Shown piece after piece: positions 4,303 through 58,762 of a stretch of 64,000 bases of DNA (its first letter is position 1; each line of letters starts with the position of its first letter). The stretch comes from Octopus vulgaris (Eukaryota). The position numbers and the translations under genes were made by a program. A model generated the notes under the pieces. The model did not search any database. It saw only the letters and a list, made by a program, of their open reading frames with translations, and was not told the origin of the DNA. Location of the stretch: the NCBI GenBank assembly GCA_951406725.2, contig OX597819.1, positions 98,704,001 through 98,768,000 on the forward strand, in the 5' to 3' direction.

Positions 4303-4661
4303 CTTTCTCCTAAAGGCACAAGGCCTGAATTTTTGTGGGAAGGACAGTCGATTACGTCGAACCCAGTACTTGACTGGTACTTAATTTATTGATCCTAAAA
4401 GGATGAAAGATAAAGTTCGACCTTGGCGGAATTTGGACTCAGAATGTAGCGACGGGCGAAATACGTATTTCTTTATTACCCACAAGGGGCTAAACATATA
4501 GTGGACAAACAAGGACAGACATAGGTATTAAGTCGATTACATCGACCCCAATGCGAAACTGGTTCTTAATTTATCGACCCCGAAAGGATGAAAGGCAAAG
4601 TCGACCTCGGCGGAATTTGAACTCACAACGTAACGGCAGACGAAATACCGTTAAGCATTTC
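4303..4661 (-). mobile_element. tRNA-derived SINE family A (Nin/Deu-domain-like), body duplicated in tandem
   Basis: Reverse complement contains gttcaaattccgccgaggtcgactttgcctttcatcctttcggggtcgataaattaag. Many copies in the window. Confidence 0.85.
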
Positions 4662-4829
4662 GCAGGAGTGGCTGTGTGGTAAGTAGCTTGCTTACAAACC
4701 ACATGGTTCCGGGTTCAGTCCCATTGCGTGGCACCTTGGGCAAGTGTCTTCTGCTATAGCCCCGGGCCGACCAATGCCATGTGAGTGGATTTGGTAGACG
4801 GAAACTGAAAGAAACCTGTCGTATATATG

Positions 4830-5337: not shown

Positions 5338-5682
5338 ACATGGAGTACTTTATTTAAACTCAATCTTTGGTGAGCTCTTAATCTCAAATTGTCTCCATTC
5401 AGTTTGTTGGCTTGCATGAAGATTCGTTAGCCCTCATTTCATTTGGGGAGCAGATGGGTTTCTCTGTATAGAAAGCTTCTTTTCCTGAATGACGGGTTCC
5501 TACGAGATAGATTCATCCCCTCTACGGTGAATGCCTTTTTTGTCAACTTCCCTCGTACTTTTTTGTTGCCTATTGTTTTTTTATTTAATGAAAGGAAGAT
5601 ATCTTTATTTTTTTTGCCCCGAAGTCTGATAACCCATTTCAGTCTACGTGGGTCCTCTATACGCTTAAGTGTATTCACCAAT

Positions 5683-6065
5683 ACCTATTTCTATATTACC
5701 CACAAGGGGCTAAACACAGAGCGGACAAACAAGGACAGACATAGGTATTAAGTCGATTACATCGACCTCAGTGCGTAACTGGTACTTAATTTATCGACCC
5801 CGAAAGGATGAAAGGCAAAGTCGACCTCGGCGGAATTTGAACTCACAACGTAACGCAGACGAAATACCTATTTCTTTATTACCCACAAGGGGCTAAACAC
5901 AGAGGGGGCAAACAAGGACACACATAGGTATTAAGTCGATTACATCGACCCCAGTGCGTAACTGGTACTTAATTTATCGACCCTGAAAGGATGAAAGGCA
6001 AAGTCGACCGAAATACTGCTAAGCATTTCGCCCGGTGTGCTAACGTTTCTGCCAGCTCGCCGCCT
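5683..6065 (-). mobile_element. SINE family A with tandem body+tail duplication
   Basis: Head ggcggcgagctggcagaaacgttagc on the minus strand at ~6065. Two copies of the tail ttagccccttgtgggtaat. Confidence 0.85.
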
Positions 6066-17399: not shown

Positions 17400-17554
17400 T
17401 ATATACACACATGTATGTATGTATAATATGCTAAAAGTATTTATGTGTATACTTTTTCGCGAGTAACACTTGATCATTTGAAGTAGAAAAAAAGGACACA
17501 AAAAGGTGAGAAGAAAGAAATATCACATTAACACGAATATAAACACATTTACAC

Positions 17555-17588
<34 letters not shown>

Positions 17589-17855
17589 CATTTGTGTGTA
17601 TATATATATATATATATATATTTGTGTGTGTATATATATATATATATATAAAATAAATAAATATATATATATATATATACACGCACACATACACACACAC
17701 ACGCACACATACACACACACACACGCACACACACATATATATATATATATATATGCACATACATATAGATATATATATGTGTGTGTAACTATATTTTCCT
17801 TGCTTAGAGAATGTACAACTCTGTTGTCTCAAAGGGAATCCTGTCAGCTTCTTCC

Positions 17856-17880
17856 CTGATGAAGGACTGTCCGAAACGGC
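17856..17880 (+). ncRNA. Degenerate hammerhead core
   Basis: CTGATGA-A-GGA-CTG-TCC-GAAAC. Stems I and III cannot be recovered. Confidence 0.4.
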
Positions 17881-18340
17881 AAACTCACTGTACTATTCTT
17901 TTCTATTTAACTAAATGTTGCCGGCGCAATCGGTCTCTTTGGAGTTTGTTTTGTCGTACGCAAAACAAGGACTATTTAGCAAAAGAGTGTGGTTAATTTT
18001 TTCACTGAGGCAGGCTTCAATCTAGTCACTATACACTCACTTAATGATGAGTGGATCAATGTTGGAAATCCTTTGATCATGAATTTGCTTGCTCAGGTCT
18101 GAGTCGAGTTGCACCACAACAAAGACAGTAGGCAGCTCAACTTCCTCGTCTAGTTACTCATATTCTGTTTCATCCCTCCGGGCACTTACCAATCCTTCCT
18201 TCATAGAATTGGTATCTGGAATTCCCCACGTCGTCGTTCTCATGCTCTCTGAACGTAAACCGTAGAAACTTCATCAAACTGGGAGGTCTTGCAAAACATC
18301 TCTTGCTCTGATTTACACACACACGCACGCACACACACAC

Positions 18341-18404
<64 letters not shown>

Positions 18405-18585
18405 TCCCGCAATTACAAACAAGATTGCGTACACACGCAGATATATCACAATAGATGTGATATATAGATGCAGAGGTATATAACCTTAAAGAATGTAATA
18501 CACAAAAGCATACTCACACACACACACACACACACACACATGCACACGCACACACACACACAATTACATGCATTCTGCCCCCCCA

Positions 18586-18619
<34 letters not shown>

Positions 18620-18658
18620 AAAAAAGGTTTGAAAATGCAATTTAAACGATGTTTATTT

Positions 18659-18697
18659 ACTTAACCGGTTTCACTCTTTGGTAAGATTGTCAAAAGT
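18659..18697 (-). ncRNA. Hammerhead ribozyme, U3-A8 variant (inverted copy)
   Basis: Reverse complement ACTT-TTGACAA-tcttaccaaagagt-GAAA-CCGG-TT-AAGT. Confidence 0.65.
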
Positions 18698-18714
18698 TAC
18701 ATTTAAGGAAACAT

Positions 18715-18937
18715 TGAATAATATGGGTTCAAAAAAAGTTTTTTACATAATTGTCACATTGAATATTATGCATTCAAAGTTTTTTACATAATTGTCACAT
18801 TGGATATTATGGGTTCAAAAAAGTTTTTTACATAATTGTCACATTGAATATTATGCATTCAAAAAAGTTTTTTACATAATTGTCACATTGGATATTATGA
18901 ATTCAAAAATGTTTTTTTATACATAATTGTCACATTA
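18715..18937. repeat. ~40-bp minisatellite (5 units) inside the pseudo-LTR, mirrored at ~21505-21730
   Basis: Unit ttcaaaaaagttttttacataattgtcacattg(a/g)atattatg, repeated. Confidence 0.9.
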
Positions 18938-19431
18938 CATGTATAAATATAGTGTTTGGTAACAGAGAAGTTCAATAGTGTGATGAGACTATTTGGGAAA
19001 ATTTGGCAGAAAAGGATAAAACAAATATATTATTGGGAATTGGTTGCGTTAATTATTGGTTGTCGCAAATTGTCACATTACATGTATATATATACAATCT
19101 TTGGTATATATATACAGCGTTTTGACAGCAAAAATTAAAATGGATTTTTTGTACATCTCAGAATATTTTAAGTATGTTTTTACTGACCTGTCAGTATTAG
19201 CAGAAAGGCTGAACTGAGAGAACAGAAGAAGTAGCCAATGTGGTGTATACTTCCCCTTTATGCATGAATGATTTTGGGGTTATCAGAAGGTTAGTATGCG
19301 GGTGTGAATAGATGTGTCCGTGCCTGCTGGTCAGACAGCGTCTGTTTGTCACACACATATATATACACACAAACACACACACACACAACAACACACACAC
19401 ACACACACACATAGTATACAAACACACACCA

Positions 19432-19596
19432 CAGATACCACTAAGTAGACACTTAGACCTTTGTGCACACAATAAGTCCCCCAAATTCTTAGTCTTCCCA
19501 CTATACCAATGCTCGGACAACACCACAGACCAAACACGAATAAATAAGGAAAGTAATCTTATTCAAAAATACAGACCACAACTAAACATACTCTAA
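19432..19596 (+). pseudogene. C-terminus of a PLE GIY-YIG endonuclease
   Basis: QIPLSRHLDLCAHNKSPKFLVFPLYQCSDNTTDQTRINKESNLIQKYRPQLNIL*, with the S-x-H...C...R-x3-E-x3-I-x4-P-x-LN pattern typical of PLE endonuclease ends. Confidence 0.75.
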
Positions 19597-19986
19597 CATA
19601 CCCCCTGGAAGCACATCCAGAGCAAGCACACAGGGACGCGCGCACGCTCACAGCATATCGTGCGGGCGGGCACATGCGCGCATCGGCACGCATAGGACAC
19701 ACTAGCGGGCATTGACCGCACACATACGTGGCATGCACACGCATGCATTATATATATGTAGGTGATGTATGTGTGTGAGTGTTGTTTGTGTGTGTGTGTG
19801 TGTGTGTGTGTGCACTGTGTGCGTGTGTGTGTATATGTGTGTGTGCGCGCGTTGTATGTGTGTGTGTGTGTGCACGTGTGTATATATGTGTGTGTGTGTG
19901 TGCACTGTGTGCGGGTGTGTGTGTATGTGTGTGTGTGTGAGCATTGTGTACGTGTGTATGTATTTACATATGTATCTGTTTATATT

Positions 19987-20025
<39 letters not shown>

Positions 20026-20821
20026 TGTGTGTGTATATGCATGGTATGTGTGTATATGTTAGTACTTTGTTTGTGTGTGTGTGCGGCATGTAGAGATATA
20101 TTTGAGTGTGTACGCTATAGGTTTGTAATTTGTGTGTGTGGGGGGTGGTGAATTTTTTATATATATATATGTGTGTGTATGTGTGTGAAAAAATATATGT
20201 ATGTGCATGTATGTATGTATGTATGTGTGTATATATATATATATATATGTGTATATATATGTGTGTGTGTGTATGTGTGTGTGTGTATATTTATTTGCAT
20301 GTTTATGTGTGTATAAACATGTACATTATTTGCATGCGCATTGTGTATATGTATATTGTATGTATGTGTATTGTATATGTACGTGTACAATTAAGTGTAT
20401 ATATTTGTGTGTATGTGTGCACTGTATATATGTATATTGTAGGTGTGCTATATGTGCATGAATACATGTATATGCATTGCGTGTATATATATGTATGCAT
20501 TGTGTGTGTATGTATGTTATGTGTGTGTGTGTGTATATATATATTATATGTATGCGTACGTGTATGTGTATGCATTGTATGTATGTGTGTTGTGTGTATA
20601 TGTGGTACATCTATGTATGTGTATGTAAACACTATTTATATGTATATGTGTATATATGTATATGCATTGTCTATATATATATATATATTATATGTATGTA
20701 TTGCGTATGTATATTGCATGCATATATTGTGTATGTATATTGCTTACATGCTGTATGTGTGTATTGTATGTGTGTATATATATGCTAGGTGTATTTGTGT
20801 GATATTTATATTATGTATGTA

Positions 20822-20875
<54 letters not shown>

Positions 20876-21749
20876 GTGTGTGTATGTGTGTTATATATCT
20901 GTGTATGTTATATATAGATACATGTTATATTTGTGTGCTGTGTGTATATGTGATATATGTGGGTGCGTTGTGTGTGGGTGTGTGTGTTCTGTGTGTGTGT
21001 GTGTTGTTTGTATGTGGTGTGTGTTTGTATACTATGTGTGTGTGTGTGTGTGTTGTTGTGTGTGTGTGTGTTTGTGTGTATATATATGTGTGTGACAAAC
21101 AGACGCTGTCTGACCAGCAGGCACGGACACATCTATTCACACCCGCATACTAACCTCCTGATAACCCCAAAATCATTCATGCATAAAGGGGAAGTATACA
21201 CCACATTGGCTACTTCTTCTGTTCTCTCAGTTCAGCCTTTCTGCTAATACTGACAGGTCAGTAAAAACATACTTAAAATATTCTGAGATGTACAAAAAAT
21301 CCATTTTAATTTTTGCTGTCAAAACGCTGTATATATATACCAAAGATTGTATATATATCCATGTAATGTGACAATTTGCGACAACCAATAATTAACGCAA
21401 CCAATTCCCAATAATATATTTGTTTTATCCTTTTCTGCCAAATTTTCCCAAATAGTCTCATCACACTATTGAACTTCTCTGTTACCAAACACTATATTTA
21501 TACATGTAATGTGACAATTATGTATAAAAAAACATTTTTGAATTCATAATATCCAATGTGACAATTATGTAAAAAACTTTTTTGAATGCATAATATTCAA
21601 TGTGACAATTATGTAAAAAACTTTTTTTGAACCCATAATATCCAATGTGACAATTATGTAAAAAACTTTTTTGAAGGCATAATATTCAATGTGACAATTA
21701 TGTAAAAAACTTTTTTGAACCCATATTATTCAATGTTTCCTTAAATGTA

Positions 21750-21790
21750 ACTTTTGACAATCTTTTACCAAAGAGTGAAACCGGTTAAGT
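21750..21790 (+). ncRNA. Hammerhead ribozyme, U3-A8 variant with GUU site
   Basis: Stem I ACTT/AAGT; core TTGACAA; stem II TCTTT-TACC-AAAGA (+GT); GAAA; palindromic stem III ACCGGT; triplet GUU. Confidence 0.7.
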
Positions 21791-21867
21791 AAATAAACAT
21801 CGTTTAAATTGCATTTTCAAACCGTTTTTCTTACATAATTCCACTCGTGCGATACCCCACAACTCAA

Positions 21868-21904
<37 letters not shown>

Positions 21905-22945
21905 ACCCATGCATATAGAGATCTATGTATGTGTTGTATAATTCCAGAAAATGCAATACCAACTCGCACGTACACACACATATGCATGTATACCTACACA
22001 CAGAAGTAAATGCAAACACTCTCACATGCAAAAATCTCTTTTAAACATATACACACATATCGTCACCATCCGTTCCACATCTACCCACGTACAGATAACC
22101 ATACACATGCATAAATACCTGTTTACACACACACAAACACACACACATAGACTCACATACACATATACACATTCACACATAGATAAACAGGCTCTCCGCT
22201 CTGCTAAACTCTGGCACTATTTGTAATCTCCTCAATACAGGTTCAATTCCCCTTCGGTCAATTTGATAAATCATCACTGTAATGTCATTATATCCTCTTT
22301 ATATCGACCCTATTTCATTTTTCTATTTTATATATTCTCTTATTCTGTTGTTCTATATATTTCTCATTCATTTATCTATTCTAGCATTCTGCTATTCATT
22401 CATTCAGTCATTCGTTTTCACTGCACATCAATATCCATACAGTAATACTGCAACAGTTCTTTTTTTCTTTAATACGAATATACATTCGCACGCACTCACA
22501 CACACGCACACACAGCTTACGTATCAACACACACACACACACGAAAACACGTAAGGGAATATACAAACGCAAGCAGGGATACACACAAGCACAAACACAC
22601 AAACGTAATAGACATACATGGACACAGAATGCGCGCGCTCACACACACACACACACATGCACACACACACACACATACAAACATACACATACAGGCATGT
22701 ATACATTAAGAAGCCAGTTGCAGATATCGATTTTAATTGTAATCCTTAGTCTATCACTTCAATTCGCCAAATATTTCTGACGTCACCAGCTGAAGTTGGT
22801 TGTAGCTGTAATTTACCTGTTACTTCCGTATCCGGTTATCAGCCTAGCTTGGTGCAAAACATTTACCGCGTTCTTTTGCTAAATAGTCCTTCTTCCCCAC
22901 TACCATTCATCTACATTTCATATATATGTGTGTGTGTGTATGTGT

Positions 22946-23548: not shown

Positions 23549-23592
<44 letters not shown>

Positions 23593-23600
<8 letters not shown>

Positions 23601-24042
23601 TAAATTAGAGATAAAACCACTATTAGGCAAATCAAACAGTGAAAATCATAAGCCAATACATAGAAATAAAATTAATTTAAAAATATAAAAGTTAAAATTT
23701 AAAAATTATTTAAATAATTTAAACTTATCATCATCATCATCATCATCGTTTAGCGTCCGTTTTCCATGCTAGCATGGGTTGGACGGTTCTACTGGGGTCT
23801 GTGAAGCCAGAAGGCTTCATCAGGCCCAGTCAAATCTGGCAGTGTTTCTACGGCTGGATGCCCTTCCTAACGCCAACCACTCCGTGAGTGTAGTGGGTGC
23901 TTTTTACGTGCCACCCGCACTGGTGCCAGACAGAGCTGGCAAACGGCCACGAACGGATGGTGCTTTTTATGTGCCACCGGCACGAGGGCCAGGCGAGACT
24001 GGCAACGGACACGAAACGGGGCGGTGCTGGCAAGCATTTTAA

Positions 24043-24090
<48 letters not shown>

Positions 24091-24181
24091 ATTTTTATAT
24101 TATTTTATTTCTATGTATTGGCTTATGATTTTCACTGTTTGATTTGCCTAATAGTGGTTTTATCTCTAATTTAATATAATA
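23593..24181. mobile_element. Fold-back element in (TA)n with ~80-bp essentially perfect inverted termini (23593-23672 / 24102-24181)
   Basis: tattaaattagagataaaaccactattaggcaaatcaaacagtgaaaatcataagccaatacatagaaataaaat and its reverse complement. Confidence 0.8.
23726..24033 (-). mobile_element. SINE 3' portion with (GAT)n tail, nested in the fold-back element
   Basis: Minus strand ...ggcgttaggaagggcatccagccgtagaaac...ccatgctagcatggaaaaacggacgctaaacgatgatgat, plus an internal tandem duplication (gtgctttttacgtgccacc-type unit, twice). Confidence 0.7.
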
Positions 24182-24494
24182 TATATATATATAATAATAA
24201 ATCTCTGAGCGAGATATAAACAGTAACTGCTCTATAACATAAGGGGGATCAGCCATCTGAATGTGGCTAGGGAAACACACACACACACATATACAAATAA
24301 GCATACTCACACGCACATACACAAACATACACAGATTGAAGTACATACTGACATGAGTACATGAGTACACATCACATGACGAGAAAAAGTGCCGCATACA
24401 ACTGGACTTACGATATGACTTTAATTTGATGACGCCAGCAAGTTAGTATTGACTTTTGTCAAACTTCGGTTACTGGAAATTAAACGATTGCAGT

Positions 24495-31567: not shown

Positions 31568-31983
31568 GGCGGCGAGCTGGCAGAAGCGTTAGCATGTCGG
31601 GCGAAATGCTTAGCGGTATTTCGTCTGCCGCTACGTTCTGAGTTCAAATTCCGCCGAGGTCGACTTTGCCTTTCATCCTTTCGGGGTCGATTAAATAAGT
31701 ACCAGTTACGCACTGGGGCTGATATAATCGACTTAATCCGTTTGTTTGTCCTTGTTTGTCCTCTCTGTGTTTAGCCCCTTGTGGGTAGTAAAGAAATATG
31801 TATTTCGTCTGCCGCTACGTTCTGAGTTCAAATTCCACCGAGGTCGACTTTGCCCTTCATCCTTTAGGAGTCAATAAATTAAGTATCAATTACGCACTGG
31901 GGTCGATGGAATCGACTTAATCTGTTTGTCTGTCCTTGTTTGTCTCCTCTATGTTTAGCCCCTTGTGGGCAATAAAGAAATAA
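31568..31983 (+). mobile_element. SINE family A with tandem body+tail duplication
   Basis: Head ggcggcgagctggcagaagcgttagc, then two units tatttcgtctgccgctacg...aaagaaata. Confidence 0.9.
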
Positions 31984-33221
31984 GTAACTTATATTAAACA
32001 GGAAATACTGATGTGAAGAAATCGAAGAGTTGGGACGAAGCATTTTAAAGTACGAGCTTAAAATTCTGCAGGTCAATATTTAGGAAGAAAATCTTGTTCC
32101 GGTTAATTACATTCCAGACATAAAGAATTAACTAGGGTGTTTAGAACTCAATGTAGGATACGGAGATAAACAGCAAGAATGATTTAGGAAATGAGAGGAA
32201 TAGGTACCAGGTGGATAAGATGGTGGTGGCACACGAAAGGTACGACTCCAGAGGCTGAGGAATAGTTGTAGAAGCAGTAGAAGTGACAGAGAGAAACTTG
32301 TAGCAGATGCAGATTGTAATGTTTTAACAATTGAAGGTTTGATTATCACTCGGAATATTTACCTTTCAATGCTGTTTAGAATACTATATTGCTGCTGTAT
32401 TGTTACAGACATGCATTCCACATGTGACGTGTCAATTATCATTAACTGATAATTGCTAGAGCGGTGTCTGGCTCTAGACAGTAAACTCGGCCTATTGGGT
32501 ATGGCTTCGACGGTAATATAGATATGCAGACACGTTAAAAGATCATCTAAGATTATGAAGGCCAGTATTTGGAAAGAAAGTAAAACTTTCAGCTGTTGTA
32601 CTTTTAATGCAGTTGCTGTGTATGATTTATAATGCAAAGTGATAGTGTTTATGTACAACTGAATGATGTGAAGATATCATATCTCAATAGTCGAGTGTTT
32701 TTACACTTACGGAGCAATACAATATCTACAACTAAAGTTCAGTGTATATTAGAAATTCCATCAAATATATATTGCAAATTCAAAACAAGCCATTCAACTG
32801 ATGCATCATGGTAAATAATATGAACTGTATATTGCTACATATAAGTATATACAACCTACTTTAGGCAAAAAAATATATGAAAATGTTGCTTACAAATACA
32901 TTTTATATTTTTGTTGATATACTTATCTCTCTCTGTCCAGATTTAAAAGTGGTAGCGCAACGTATAAAATGTTTGTAGTGGATTAGGCTGCTTTTTTTTT
33001 TTAACTATAAAGCTACATATGAGGCTCTGTCTATTTTGCCAGTAGCAGCGCACGAAACACTTGAACCTGAAGTCACTGATATAACTTCACATAGAAACAT
33101 AGTTCATATCTGACGAAAGGATATCTCAATTCTGTATAATTATTTCATTACCTGCGCATTAAAATATTTTTTCAACCAACCAACCAATCAACAAGCCAAC
33201 CAACCAACGAATCGAATCACA

Positions 33222-43477: not shown

Positions 43478-43925
43478 AATCTAGGAATAAGACCTGGAAT
43501 TTTGAGGGCAAGGGGCTAGTCGATTACATCGACCCCAATGCTCAACTGGTATTTATTTCATCGACCCCGAAAGGATGAAAAGCAAAATCAAATTCGGCAG
43601 AACTTGAACTCAAATTCGGACGAAATGTTGCTCAGCATTTTTCCCGGTGTGCTAACGATTCTGCCACCTCGCTACGGTAGATGATGATAATGACAACGAT
43701 GGTTATAATGATGATAATTTCAAATCTTGGCACAAGATGCAGCTATTTTAATGAAGAGGGCCAAATCGATTACATTGGCCCATGTACTTAACCGGTACTT
43801 GATTTATATCAATCCCGAAGCGATGAAAGGCAATGTTAGCCAACGCAGAACTTGAACTCACAACGTAAAGAGCTAGAAGAAATGTCCCAAAGCATTTTGC
43901 CCTGTATGCTAATGATTCTGTCGGT
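43478..43925 (-). mobile_element. Two diverged SINE family A copies
   Basis: gtcgattacatcgacccc...gaaaggatgaaa...gaactca, present twice. Confidence 0.7.
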
Positions 43926-43970
43926 AATACCTGAGGTCTTAGGCATACCAGACATATTATTAAGTATACA

Positions 43971-44709
43971 AATTGCAGCACAAGACCAAAGCCTCCCCAC
44001 CAGAAATTACCAAAAACATGTAATGAAAAGAAATATTACAAGTAACTGCAGAATATGTGGAGATGGACAAGAAACAATAAATCATATTATCTCTAGCTGC
44101 CCAGTCCTGGCTAAGAAGGAATATATTCACAGACATGACAGAGTTGGAACCTACATACATTGGAAGCTATGCCAACATTATGGAATAACAACAGAAAAAA
44201 GATGGTATAGGCACACACCAGAAAAGGTCACAGAAAACGAGAAAGCAACCATACTCTGGGATATGCCGATACACACAGATAGAGAAATTAAGGCCAACAG
44301 ACCAGATATAGTTGTCAGAGATCATGAAGAAAAAAATGCTTTCTAATTGATGTATCAATACCGGCAGATGACAACGTGTCTCTAAAAGAAATGGAGAAAC
44401 TCTCAAAATACAAAGACCTGGAAATAGAGGTAACTAGAATGTGGAATCTGAAAACAGAAACAATTCCTATCATAGTAGGTGCATTAGGCATGATAAAAAA
44501 ATATTCAGACAAATACATAACAAAAACACCAGGACTTACAAACACATATAACATACAGAAAATTGCACTACTAGGCACTGCACACATCCTACGCAAAACA
44601 CTTTCCATACAATAACCATCAGAGCATCACAACAAATCACAGCACATACCCAAGGCACACAGAGCTGCGCTCGGTAGTGAAGTGAAAGCACGCTATAAAA
44701 ATAAAACTA

Positions 44710-50897: not shown

Positions 50898-51307
50898 CAG
50901 GGGTTGGACAAAATAATGGAAACACCGAGCATCATAGCATCATAATTGAAAAAGCACCAAATTCATACAGCTAAAGTTGTTGCTGAATGGCACAAGGAAC
51001 ATTCTAGTGAAGTTGAACATCTTATCTGGCCACCACAGTCCCCAGATCTCAATATTATTGAACATTTATGGGTGCATTTTAGAAAAACAAGTAACGAGTT
51101 GATATCCTCCACCATCAACACTACAAGAACCGGAGACTGTTTTAGCTGAAGAATGGACAAAGATTCCTTTGGAAACAATTCAAACTTTGTACGAGTCCAT
51201 ACCTCGTAGAATTCAAGCTGTAATTACTGCCAAAGGCGGTCCTACCCCATATAAAAATAAATTTGTTTGAAATTTTAAGGTGTTTCCATTATTTTGTCGA
51301 ACCCTTG
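50898..51307 (+). mobile_element. Internally deleted Tc1 DNA transposon
   Basis: 29-bp TIRs CAGGGGTTGGACAAAATAATGGAAACACC (2 mismatches), TA on the left. Residual transposase APIHTAK...WPPQSPDLNIIEHLW...SIPRRIQAVITAKGGPTPY. Confidence 0.92.
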
Positions 51308-55107: not shown

Positions 55108-55228
55108 CCCCCATTATGCGTAGAATTCGTGAAATTTAAATTTTTCTCATGTCAACAAACACATGGTACTTTCATATTTACAATAGTACATATATAAGCA
55201 TATCAAGGATGGTAGGTATTGTTCATTA

Positions 55229-55678
55229 AGGCGGCGAGCTGGCAGAATCGTTAGCGCGCCGGGCGAAATGTGTAGCCGTATTTCGTCTGCCGTTACGTTC
55301 TGAGTTCAAATTCCGCCGAGGTCGACATTGCCTTTCATCCTTTCGGGGTCGATAAATTAAGTGCCAGTTACGCACTGGGGTCGATGTAGTCGACTTAATC
55401 CGTTTGTCTGTCCTTGTTTGTCCCCAATATGTTTAGCCCCTTGTGGGTAGTAAAGAAATAGGTAGATATTGTCCATGAAGATTAATAAAGCAGCGATTTT
55501 GTAGAATCGTTAGCACGCAAAATTTCGTATGTGCCTTCTGAATTCAAATTCTGCCGAGTTCCATTTTGACTTTCATCCTTTCGGGGGTCAATAAAATAAG
55601 TATCAGTTGTGGACTAGGGTCGTTCTAATCGGCCTGCCCCGTCCCTCGTAACTATTGACCATGTGGCAAAATTTGAAG
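55229..55678 (+). mobile_element. SINE family A full copy (55229-55462) plus an older copy
   Basis: ggcggcgagctggcagaatcgttagcgcgccgggcgaaat...aaagaaatagg. Confidence 0.85.
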
Positions 55679-57037: not shown

Positions 57038-57664
<627 letters not shown>

Positions 57665-57667
<3 letters not shown>

Positions 57668-58000
57668 TGTCTCTAAAAGAAATGGAGAAACTCTCAAAAT
57701 ACAAAGACCTGGAAATAGAGATAACTAGAATGTGGAACCTGAAAACAGAAACAATTCCTATCATAGTAGGTGCATTAGGCATGATAAAAAAATATTCAGA
57801 CAAATACATAACAAAAACACCAGGACTTACAAACACATATAACATACAGAAAATTGCACTACTAGGCACTGCACACATCCTACGCAGAACACTTTCCATA
57901 CAATAACCATCAGAGCATCACAACAAATCACAGCACATACCCAAGGCACACAGAGCTGCGCTCGGTAGTGAAGTGAAAGCACACTATAAAAATAAAACTA

Positions 58001-58064: not shown

Positions 58065-58762
58065 AGACCATCTCGTCTCGGGATGACCTGTGCTGACACC
58101 AAACAAATACAAAATTCGCCACAATAGTGTAGGACAGTATTTACATTGGAAAATATGTAAACTCTACAAAATCAGCACTCGTTCTTACTGGTATAAACAT
58201 CATCCTGAGCTAGTCGTTGAAGGTAAAAATGTCACTATCCTCTGGGATTTTCCAGTCAATACTGACCGCATGATCTAGGCTAATCGACCAGACATAATTA
58301 TTAAAGACATGGACTAAAATACTTGTAGACTAACAGATGTAAGTGTTGCTGCTGATAAAAATATATCTGTAAAGGAATTTGACAAATTAAGTAAATATAA
58401 TGACCTGGAAATTGAAATACGAAAGATGTGGCATCTCAAAGCGAGAACTGTTCCTATTATTGTAGGTACTATAGGTATGGTAAAAAAAAAGGGATGTCAG
58501 AAACATCTAGATAAGATCCCAGGGGAAGCATGCCTCAGAGAAATCCAAAAGATTATGCTGACAAGTACTGCCCATATCCTTAGAAAAGCCCTATCCGTTT
58601 AAATGTTTGTGTCGTATTACATGAAGATATTAGGCTGCTGCCCCTGGCAATCTTTCAGTCCTACTGTAACATCTCTTATCCTTCACTCGCCCAGGACGAT
58701 GGGTGTGTCTCAGCAAGTGATTGTAACAAACGCGCTGCTTGAAAGTAAACAATAATAATAAT
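58065..58762 (+). mobile_element. Older R4/Dong-like LINE 3' fragment
   Basis: RHNSVGQYLHWKIC...ILWDFPVNTDRMI*ANRPDIII...KLSKYNDLEIEI...TAHILRKAL, with internal stops. Short AAT tail. Confidence 0.88.

Follow-up and report, generated by a model that had tools for sequence, protein, structure and literature searches.

That retroelements can seed microsatellites is a well-known subject. For Penelope-like elements (PLEs), targeting of (TA)n or other microsatellites, an inverted truncated copy and a one-sided tail of 30 to 40 bp are described as typical in the sections of PMC8557442 drawn on here. In vitro, the protein of a Poseidon element is reported to nick and extend both strands and to start reverse transcription at two internal sites of the RNA, the tail corresponding to the span between them (PMC11167929). 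Hammerhead motifs with a U3-A8 core have been published for Schistosoma PLEs (PMC4209133), and the Neptune and Nematis clades are shown in Fig. S2 of PMC8557442 with a different linker spacing, the Nematis rows having fewer than 10 residues. Octopus vulgaris is credited with 30 recently active Penelope families, comprising 329 insertions and 1.80 Mb (PMC13282606).

We analyzed a 64-kb window of O. vulgaris DNA (the whole stretch studied) and found an insert made of two 5′-truncated copies of one PLE, placed head to head between (TA)15 and (TA)17 (Table 1). Since the reading frame and the hammerhead motif fix the orientation, the sense strand is the forward strand, and the insert therefore consists of a forward copy of 2440 nt (2.44 kb, positions 19432-21871) and an inverted copy of 818 nt (0.82 kb), with both 3′ ends facing outward and the truncated 5′ ends meeting at a 2-nt CA overlap. 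The two arms, separated by a unique core of 1.58 kb, are reverse complements with 98.4% identity over 824 columns of a gapped alignment. The initial annotation had listed, in order, (TA)n, an arm, a coding fragment, a TG/TA tract, a mirror arm, a tail and (TA)n, and the alignment and repeat coordinates agree with that order. Its description of the arms as inverted 820-bp pseudo-LTRs was right about the inversion but not about two equal LTRs, as one arm is the inverted, 5′-truncated second copy.

Table 1. Features of the insert and its borders (window coordinates).
Feature	Position	Strand	Basis or remark
Left (TA)15 target microsatellite	18588-18617	.	overlaps arm end by 2 nt; would hide any target-site duplication
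Short inverted 5′-truncated copy, 818 nt	18616-19433	−	3′ end outward, without tail; arm alignment
Hammerhead motif copy, short arm	18663-18693	−	stem II 2 nt shorter; Rfam HH9 15.4 bits, E 6.8, far below gathering threshold
44-nt minisatellite, 5.1 copies, short arm	18711-18936	−	repeat scan
Head-to-head junction	19432-19433	.	2-nt CA common to inverted arm and first Gln codon of coding fragment
Coding fragment, 54 residues and stop	19432-19596	+	homology to P0001 C-terminus; residue roles from PMC8557442 (in part)
Start of 3′ UTR: CpG-rich CA/CG block, then TG block	19597-19915	+	long sense-strand RNA hairpin predicted, many G-U pairs
Degenerate TG/TA tract, 1.35 kb	19745-21094	+	last 82 nt (21013-21094) duplicated in inverted arm
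Right arm, 3′ 821 nt of long copy	21013-21833	+	arm alignment
44-nt minisatellite, 5.1 copies	21508-21736	+	directly upstream of hammerhead; repeat scan
Minimal hammerhead motif of type I, variant with U3-A8 core	21750-21790	+	stems I and II of 4 and 5 bp, stem III a palindrome; cleavage predicted after 21786
Tail, 38-39 nt	21834-21871	+	one end only
Right (TA)17 target microsatellite	21872-21905	.	repeat scan

Both outer ends adjoin (TA)n, so that a target-site duplication, if any, is concealed within these runs and none is readable. Runs of (TA)8 or longer number 60 in the window, and the probability that one insert end abuts such a run by chance is about 0.007. The tail, annotated earlier as a unique stretch of 39 nt, measured 38 to 39 nt (to 21871 or 21872), occurs once in the window and is probably element DNA rather than host DNA. 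No second copy of any unique part of the insert was detected in the 64 kb by blastn, tblastn or profile search. The arms differ by four substitutions, three of them transversions, and by five small indels, of which four lie in A/T runs and one in an AC run. This supports the view, proposed before from the similarity of the arms, that the insert is young; with the octopus rate given in PMC13282606 (0.0036 substitutions per site per million years), four changes among 815 sites correspond to about 0.7 million years (0.2-1.7), a figure to be taken only as "young" because some of the differences may be sequencing errors. The reverse transcriptase (RT) part was lost by truncation of the copy, and the insert is non-autonomous and cannot move by itself.

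The Penelope-like identity and GIY-YIG tail claimed for the insert were borne out by homology. When longer proteins were searched with the window peptide, one of three candidates matched, a protein of 772 residues (P0001) with which the peptide shares 43 of 54 residues (80%, E 3e-18) and its end point. The stop codon of the window frame thus aligns with the end of P0001, which places the nuclease at the C-terminus. P0001 carries an RVT_1 domain (below the curated cut-off) and a GIY-YIG domain (above it). Pfam searches with window peptides of 55 and 94 residues returned no family; a profile built from 17 relatives had the coding frame as its sole match in the window (E 4e-19). When the window peptide was aligned with 11 close relatives, its histidine, glutamate and asparagine proved invariant. 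By homology to P0001, the peptide is the C-terminus of an ORF that would encode a GIY-YIG nuclease together with a PLE-type RT.

To place the element we relied on P0001 and its relatives, 2360 of which were found at E 1e-20 or better among 6317 candidates; the motif counts rest on the 120 listed of these. DKG was present in 118 of the 120, DKT in one and DKA in none, and 113 of the 120 had YIG near the C-terminus, with the CX2-5CxxC linker and two internal cysteines in 109 of these 113. Both the linker and the CCHH motif were read in P0001, the window fragment containing only the last histidine. In P0001, 24 residues lie between CxxC and the next cysteine, and in a comparison by eye with part of PMC8557442 (Fig. 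S2) this spacing fits the Neptune rows, unlike the Nematis rows. Because of the C-terminal nuclease, the DKG motif, and the linker and its spacing in P0001 and its relatives, the element would be, judged by these motifs, a C-terminal-nuclease PLE of Neptune type. The Nematis clade does not fit, as P0001 lacks the reduced linker between the zinc motif and GIY.

Each arm carries a candidate hammerhead motif in the pseudo-LTR (pLTR); this predicted motif was missing from the list of the initial annotation. A scan of both strands of the window for the hammerhead core pattern gave two matches, one per arm and 3.06 kb apart. The right-arm motif is composed of stem I (ACTT/AAGT), the core TTGACAA, a U-U opposition, a stem II of five pairs, GAAA and the palindrome ACCGGT. 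The short-arm motif failed the strict descriptor because its stem II is 2 nt shorter. Among 3000 shuffles of 21095-21872, stems I and II of at least four pairs each arose in three, and the palindrome in addition in none; since the descriptor was composed after the motif had been seen, this result serves for orientation rather than as a formal test. The folding stability of the hammerhead and tail region was no better than that of shuffles (z about 0), and an Rfam search of 17500-22500 gave 101 matches, all below gathering threshold and nearly all to repeat-derived miRNA models, with HH9 appearing once. The U3-A8 core also occurs in a related locus (L005, see below) and the U-U base of stem II in another (L001); in published PLE motifs, too, the base of stem II commonly has a T on each side. 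At 17856-17886 on the forward strand, 730 nt upstream of the insert, we noted a hammerhead-like C3-G8 core with a 3-pair stem II and no stem I, possibly a remnant of another PLE end.

Between the stop codon and the hammerhead of the insert lie 2158 nt, filled by the TG/TA tract and the minisatellite. The tract, for which about 1.3 kb had been claimed, measured 1350 nt and shows 88% purine/pyrimidine alternation with a G+T content of 0.76; the minisatellite of about 40 bp proved to have a period of 44, with 5.1 copies per arm and a higher-order period of 89 nt. The earlier placement of the tract inside the element also stood. Because 82 nt of the tract are present in both arms, the tract came in with the insertion; the short copy stops inside it, which supports the inclusion of the tract in the unit retrotransposed here. 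The initial annotation went further and inferred that the family itself disperses simple repeats. This may be so, and we lean slightly toward the view that most copies share the tract. A phmmer search for other copies, made with a chance frame across the boundary between tract and unique sequence against 1.84 billion proteins, returned two weak multi-stretch matches, neither of them usable. A literature search covering titles and the starts of abstracts, with Repbase, Dfam and subscription papers outside its scope, found no Neptune family with a kilobase TG/TA tract, which is a weak negative.

As a yardstick for the 3′ UTR we used 45 PLE-bearing loci (L001-L045) from a scan of contigs in a bacterial genome collection, which are probably animal DNA inside bacterial bins; many of them sit on long contigs of one Stappiaceae bin. 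The nuclease end was matched in 15 of the 45, and in eight of the 15, representing seven distinct elements (L013 and L019 overlap and were counted as one), a relaxed descriptor found a downstream hammerhead 146 to 422 nt from the stop; the hammerheads of L002 and L030 are weak. Four of the remaining loci have less than 230 nt of downstream sequence, L008 and L009 have no hammerhead despite sufficient room, and in L029 a hammerhead was identified by eye 763 nt from the stop. None of the seven relatives with a measured distance has such a TG/TA tract. Because they are only 26 to 46% identical to P0001, these loci indicate the usual 3′ UTR and not that of the insert's own family.

Simple repeats do occur at some of these loci. 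In L001 a 30-nt minisatellite of three copies directly follows the stop, so the minisatellite of the insert is unremarkable. L029 (6279-7100) is a decayed PLE in microsatellite-rich DNA. Its hammerhead is set apart from the stop by a stretch that includes (TA)n, (CA)n and (TA)n(TG)n, microsatellites that may postdate the insertion, and also a duplicated 260-nt unit; the locus lies on a 539-kb contig of animal-like DNA in a bacterial bin. In L011 (2768-4168), a long reading frame past the hammerhead runs into the start of the next RT ORF, which suggests a tandem unit with an upstream ORF.

The strongest alternative accepts the same element but takes the tract as a captured host microsatellite, specific to the donor copy or a small sublineage, in which case the family 3′ UTR would be short and the family would not generally disperse simple repeats. 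We regard this reading as possible, though on the doubtful side. It has a precedent in rotifer Pen1, where captured spacers of 0.9 to 1.5 kb between the ORF and the 3′ pLTR are reported to vary between copies (PMC3846280), and it agrees with the short 3′ UTRs of the seven related elements. Donor DNA is plentiful, since the window contains 72 runs of alternating repeat, counting that of the element, which add up to 14,346 nt or about 22%, and (TATG)n tracts of the host come to a similar base composition and strand bias. The tract is nevertheless unlike the 23 host tracts in the window: it is the longest (1350 nt versus at most 1036 nt), its share of TT phase breaks exceeds all of theirs (0.51 versus 0.09-0.39), and it contains little perfect repeat. 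Moreover, it merges gradually into the post-stop region with no sharp edge, and only 51 of its 877 break-containing 14-mers recur outside the element, all of them near-simple repeats.

If the tract is instead family-wide, as we slightly favor, each jump of a TA-targeting retroelement would also deliver some 1.4 kb of TG/TA repeat, which would help to explain very microsatellite-rich genomes, and differences in the tract from copy to copy would measure repeat mutation during passage through RNA. A far more speculative extension, which we consider quite improbable, is that an active Neptune family carries its 2.2-kb 3′ UTR as a fixed, structured microsatellite module; A-to-I editing of CA/UG and UA duplexes and slippage copying would then let the RT write new strand-biased TG/TA repeats, making the element a source of host compound microsatellites and not only a carrier. 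The leads toward RNA editing are all post hoc and come from one copy. The 296 nt after the stop fold as a long sense-strand hairpin (−159.5 kcal/mol, against −91.7 for the antisense strand), which 2 of 120 half-wise shuffled controls matched; 31 of its 116 pairs are G-U, and its Watson-Crick complementarity was not significant, 190 of 500 shuffles being as good. The CG share in the 5′ arm of the hairpin is 0.38 (15 of 39 CA plus CG), versus at most 0.33 in 443 overlapping CA-rich host windows. An A-to-G change in an RNA duplex would raise the CG share, as ordinary transitions can too, and we treat this as a lead only. TATGTA was counted 25 times and TACATA once, a bias that the host (TATG)n tracts share. 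Between the arms there was no A-to-G bias, none of the four substitutions being A/G on the sense strand.

We hypothesize that the insert goes back to one retrotransposition event, in which a Neptune-type PLE with a C-terminal endonuclease was copied from a donor RNA with a long 3′ UTR, a reading that we hold to be very probable. From the observed components, their order and their orientation, we infer the following nick-and-prime course. The GIY-YIG nuclease would nick a (TA)n run, whose sequence is identical on both strands, and the RT would prime at both nicks. On the element RNA it would start from two internal positions close to each other, 47 and about 85 nt past the predicted hammerhead cut, with the stretch between them becoming the tail. 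The longer cDNA (2.44 kb) would reach into the nuclease gene and the shorter one (0.82 kb) into the TG tract, and their truncated ends would be joined at the 2-nt microhomology. The donor RNA would already have had the long 3′ UTR with its TG/TA tract and minisatellite, and the event would therefore have carried some 1.4 kb of simple repeat to the new site. From the layout, two primings on a (TA)n target that is strand-symmetric appear plausible, and the insert may serve as a clean specimen of PLE integration, as its end points, 38 to 39 nt apart and both in (TA)n, fit the model of two start sites.

The main rival for this mechanism derives the inverted arm from fold-back self-priming or a template switch within one round of cDNA synthesis, and not from two primings. 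Palindromes at the inverted junctions of rotifer Penelopes have prompted such a proposal (PMC3846280), and a template switch would be favored here in that the short copy ends in the TG tract while the coding side is CA-rich. However, the junction has no palindrome center, the arms stand 1.58 kb apart, and both outer ends adjoin (TA)n with differing end points, and we consider this course unlikely. That the inversion is an assembly or chimeric-read artefact is highly improbable. Long inverted repeats in microsatellite-rich DNA do assemble poorly, and four of the five indels lie in homopolymers and three of the four substitutions are transversions, as for sequencing errors; yet a fold-back read yields a palindrome and not arms around a unique 1.58-kb core, the one-sided tail has the published length, (TA)n is found at each end, and the window contains no Ns. 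Least of all do we credit a DNA transposon of a non-autonomous, foldback or MITE-like kind, with terminal inverted repeats of 820 bp, a TA target and a captured PLE fragment, for although long inverted ends with a minisatellite and TA flanks would suit it, the 38-39-nt tail breaks the terminal symmetry, the hammerhead in the arms is of PLE type and has the place and direction that the ORF would predict, and the arm boundary cuts through the tract and through a codon.

As a whole, the window is animal DNA with many microsatellites and dispersed repeats; window-level repeats cover 26% of it. A Ly6/quiver-like gene on the reverse strand has two phase-compatible exons (11312-11172 and 2675 to about 2357) and a hydrophobic C-terminus; the exons match positions 1-41 and 45-86 of Pfam QVR, both matches falling short of the curated cut-off. 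The 820-bp inverted pair is located 7 kb upstream of these two coding exons, and the short arm, with its shortened stem II, is on the strand of the gene. Since a search of the window gave no convincing candidate for the first exon, the insert is either intronic or upstream of the gene; if it is intronic, the host transcript would contain a long RNA duplex made by the inverted pair. LINE 3′ fragments, possibly of Dong/R4-like type, occur at 43840-44615, 57603-57906 and 58318-58602, with a zf-RVT match at 43840-44343 and two of them near (AAT)n runs, and a DDE_3 transposase fragment lies on the forward strand at 50946-51146 (E 1.9e-9). Of the three top Atlas clusters near a LINE fragment, two have Mollusca as their most frequent phylum, from few records. 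A SINE-like unit of 183-184 nt forms tandem dimers at 4346-4663, 5680-6009, 31616-31986 and 55228-55464 and is also present as many dispersed partial copies, 80-95% alike. A second inverted pair (23572-23682 and 24092-24202; 111 nt, 93% complementary, 409 nt apart) adjoins (AT)n runs and encloses a 63-nt tandem repeat.

Among described systems, the closest are the Neptune elements (PMC8557442). They share RT followed by GIY-YIG, the CX2-5CxxC linker, CCHH and DKG (seen here in the relative P0001), as well as a microsatellite target, a hammerhead near the 3′ end, an inverted truncated copy and a one-sided tail; the insert differs in having a U3-A8 core and not C3-G8. The same source describes (TA)n targeting, tails and inverted copies for the Hydra and Naiad clades, both with Octopus families. 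Hydra, however, is described there as lacking CCHH and having DKT, and Naiad as having an N-terminal nuclease, DKA and no canonical hammerhead, neither of which fits P0001. What speaks against Hydra is the presence of CCHH and the DKG and DKT counts among the 120 listed relatives, and against Naiad the C-terminal nuclease, the DKA count and the presence of a hammerhead motif. The model of two nicks comes from a Poseidon element, of a different clade than the insert (PMC11167929).

With Pen1_Av and Pen2_Av of Adineta vaga, as reported in part of PMC3846280, the insert shares flanking by inverted pLTRs, an optional tail (31 bp there) and microhomology at the 5′ junctions, although host and family are different. 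Its spacer also resembles in position and size the one between ORF and 3′ pLTR in Pen1_Av, but those spacers are described as unique host DNA, mostly with direct pLTRs, whereas that of the insert is simple repeat and lies partly within the arm. The Cercyon PLE of Schistosoma mansoni (PMC4209133, in part) likewise carries a minimal motif of type I within its pLTR, shows U3-A8 covariation and has pairs of motifs on opposite strands; in the insert, stem III is a short palindrome and the motifs are set 3.06 kb apart. Young Penelope copies (>98% identity) of the SSR-rich genome of Litopenaeus vannamei are reported to move with internal SSRs (PMC7878876, in part), those copies being full-length. The carriage of simple repeats is therefore known in kind, whether the tract is family-wide or captured. 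Taken together, these comparisons leave one unusual trait in an otherwise published anatomy: a 3′ UTR filled with simple repeats and at least five times longer than in the seven related elements.
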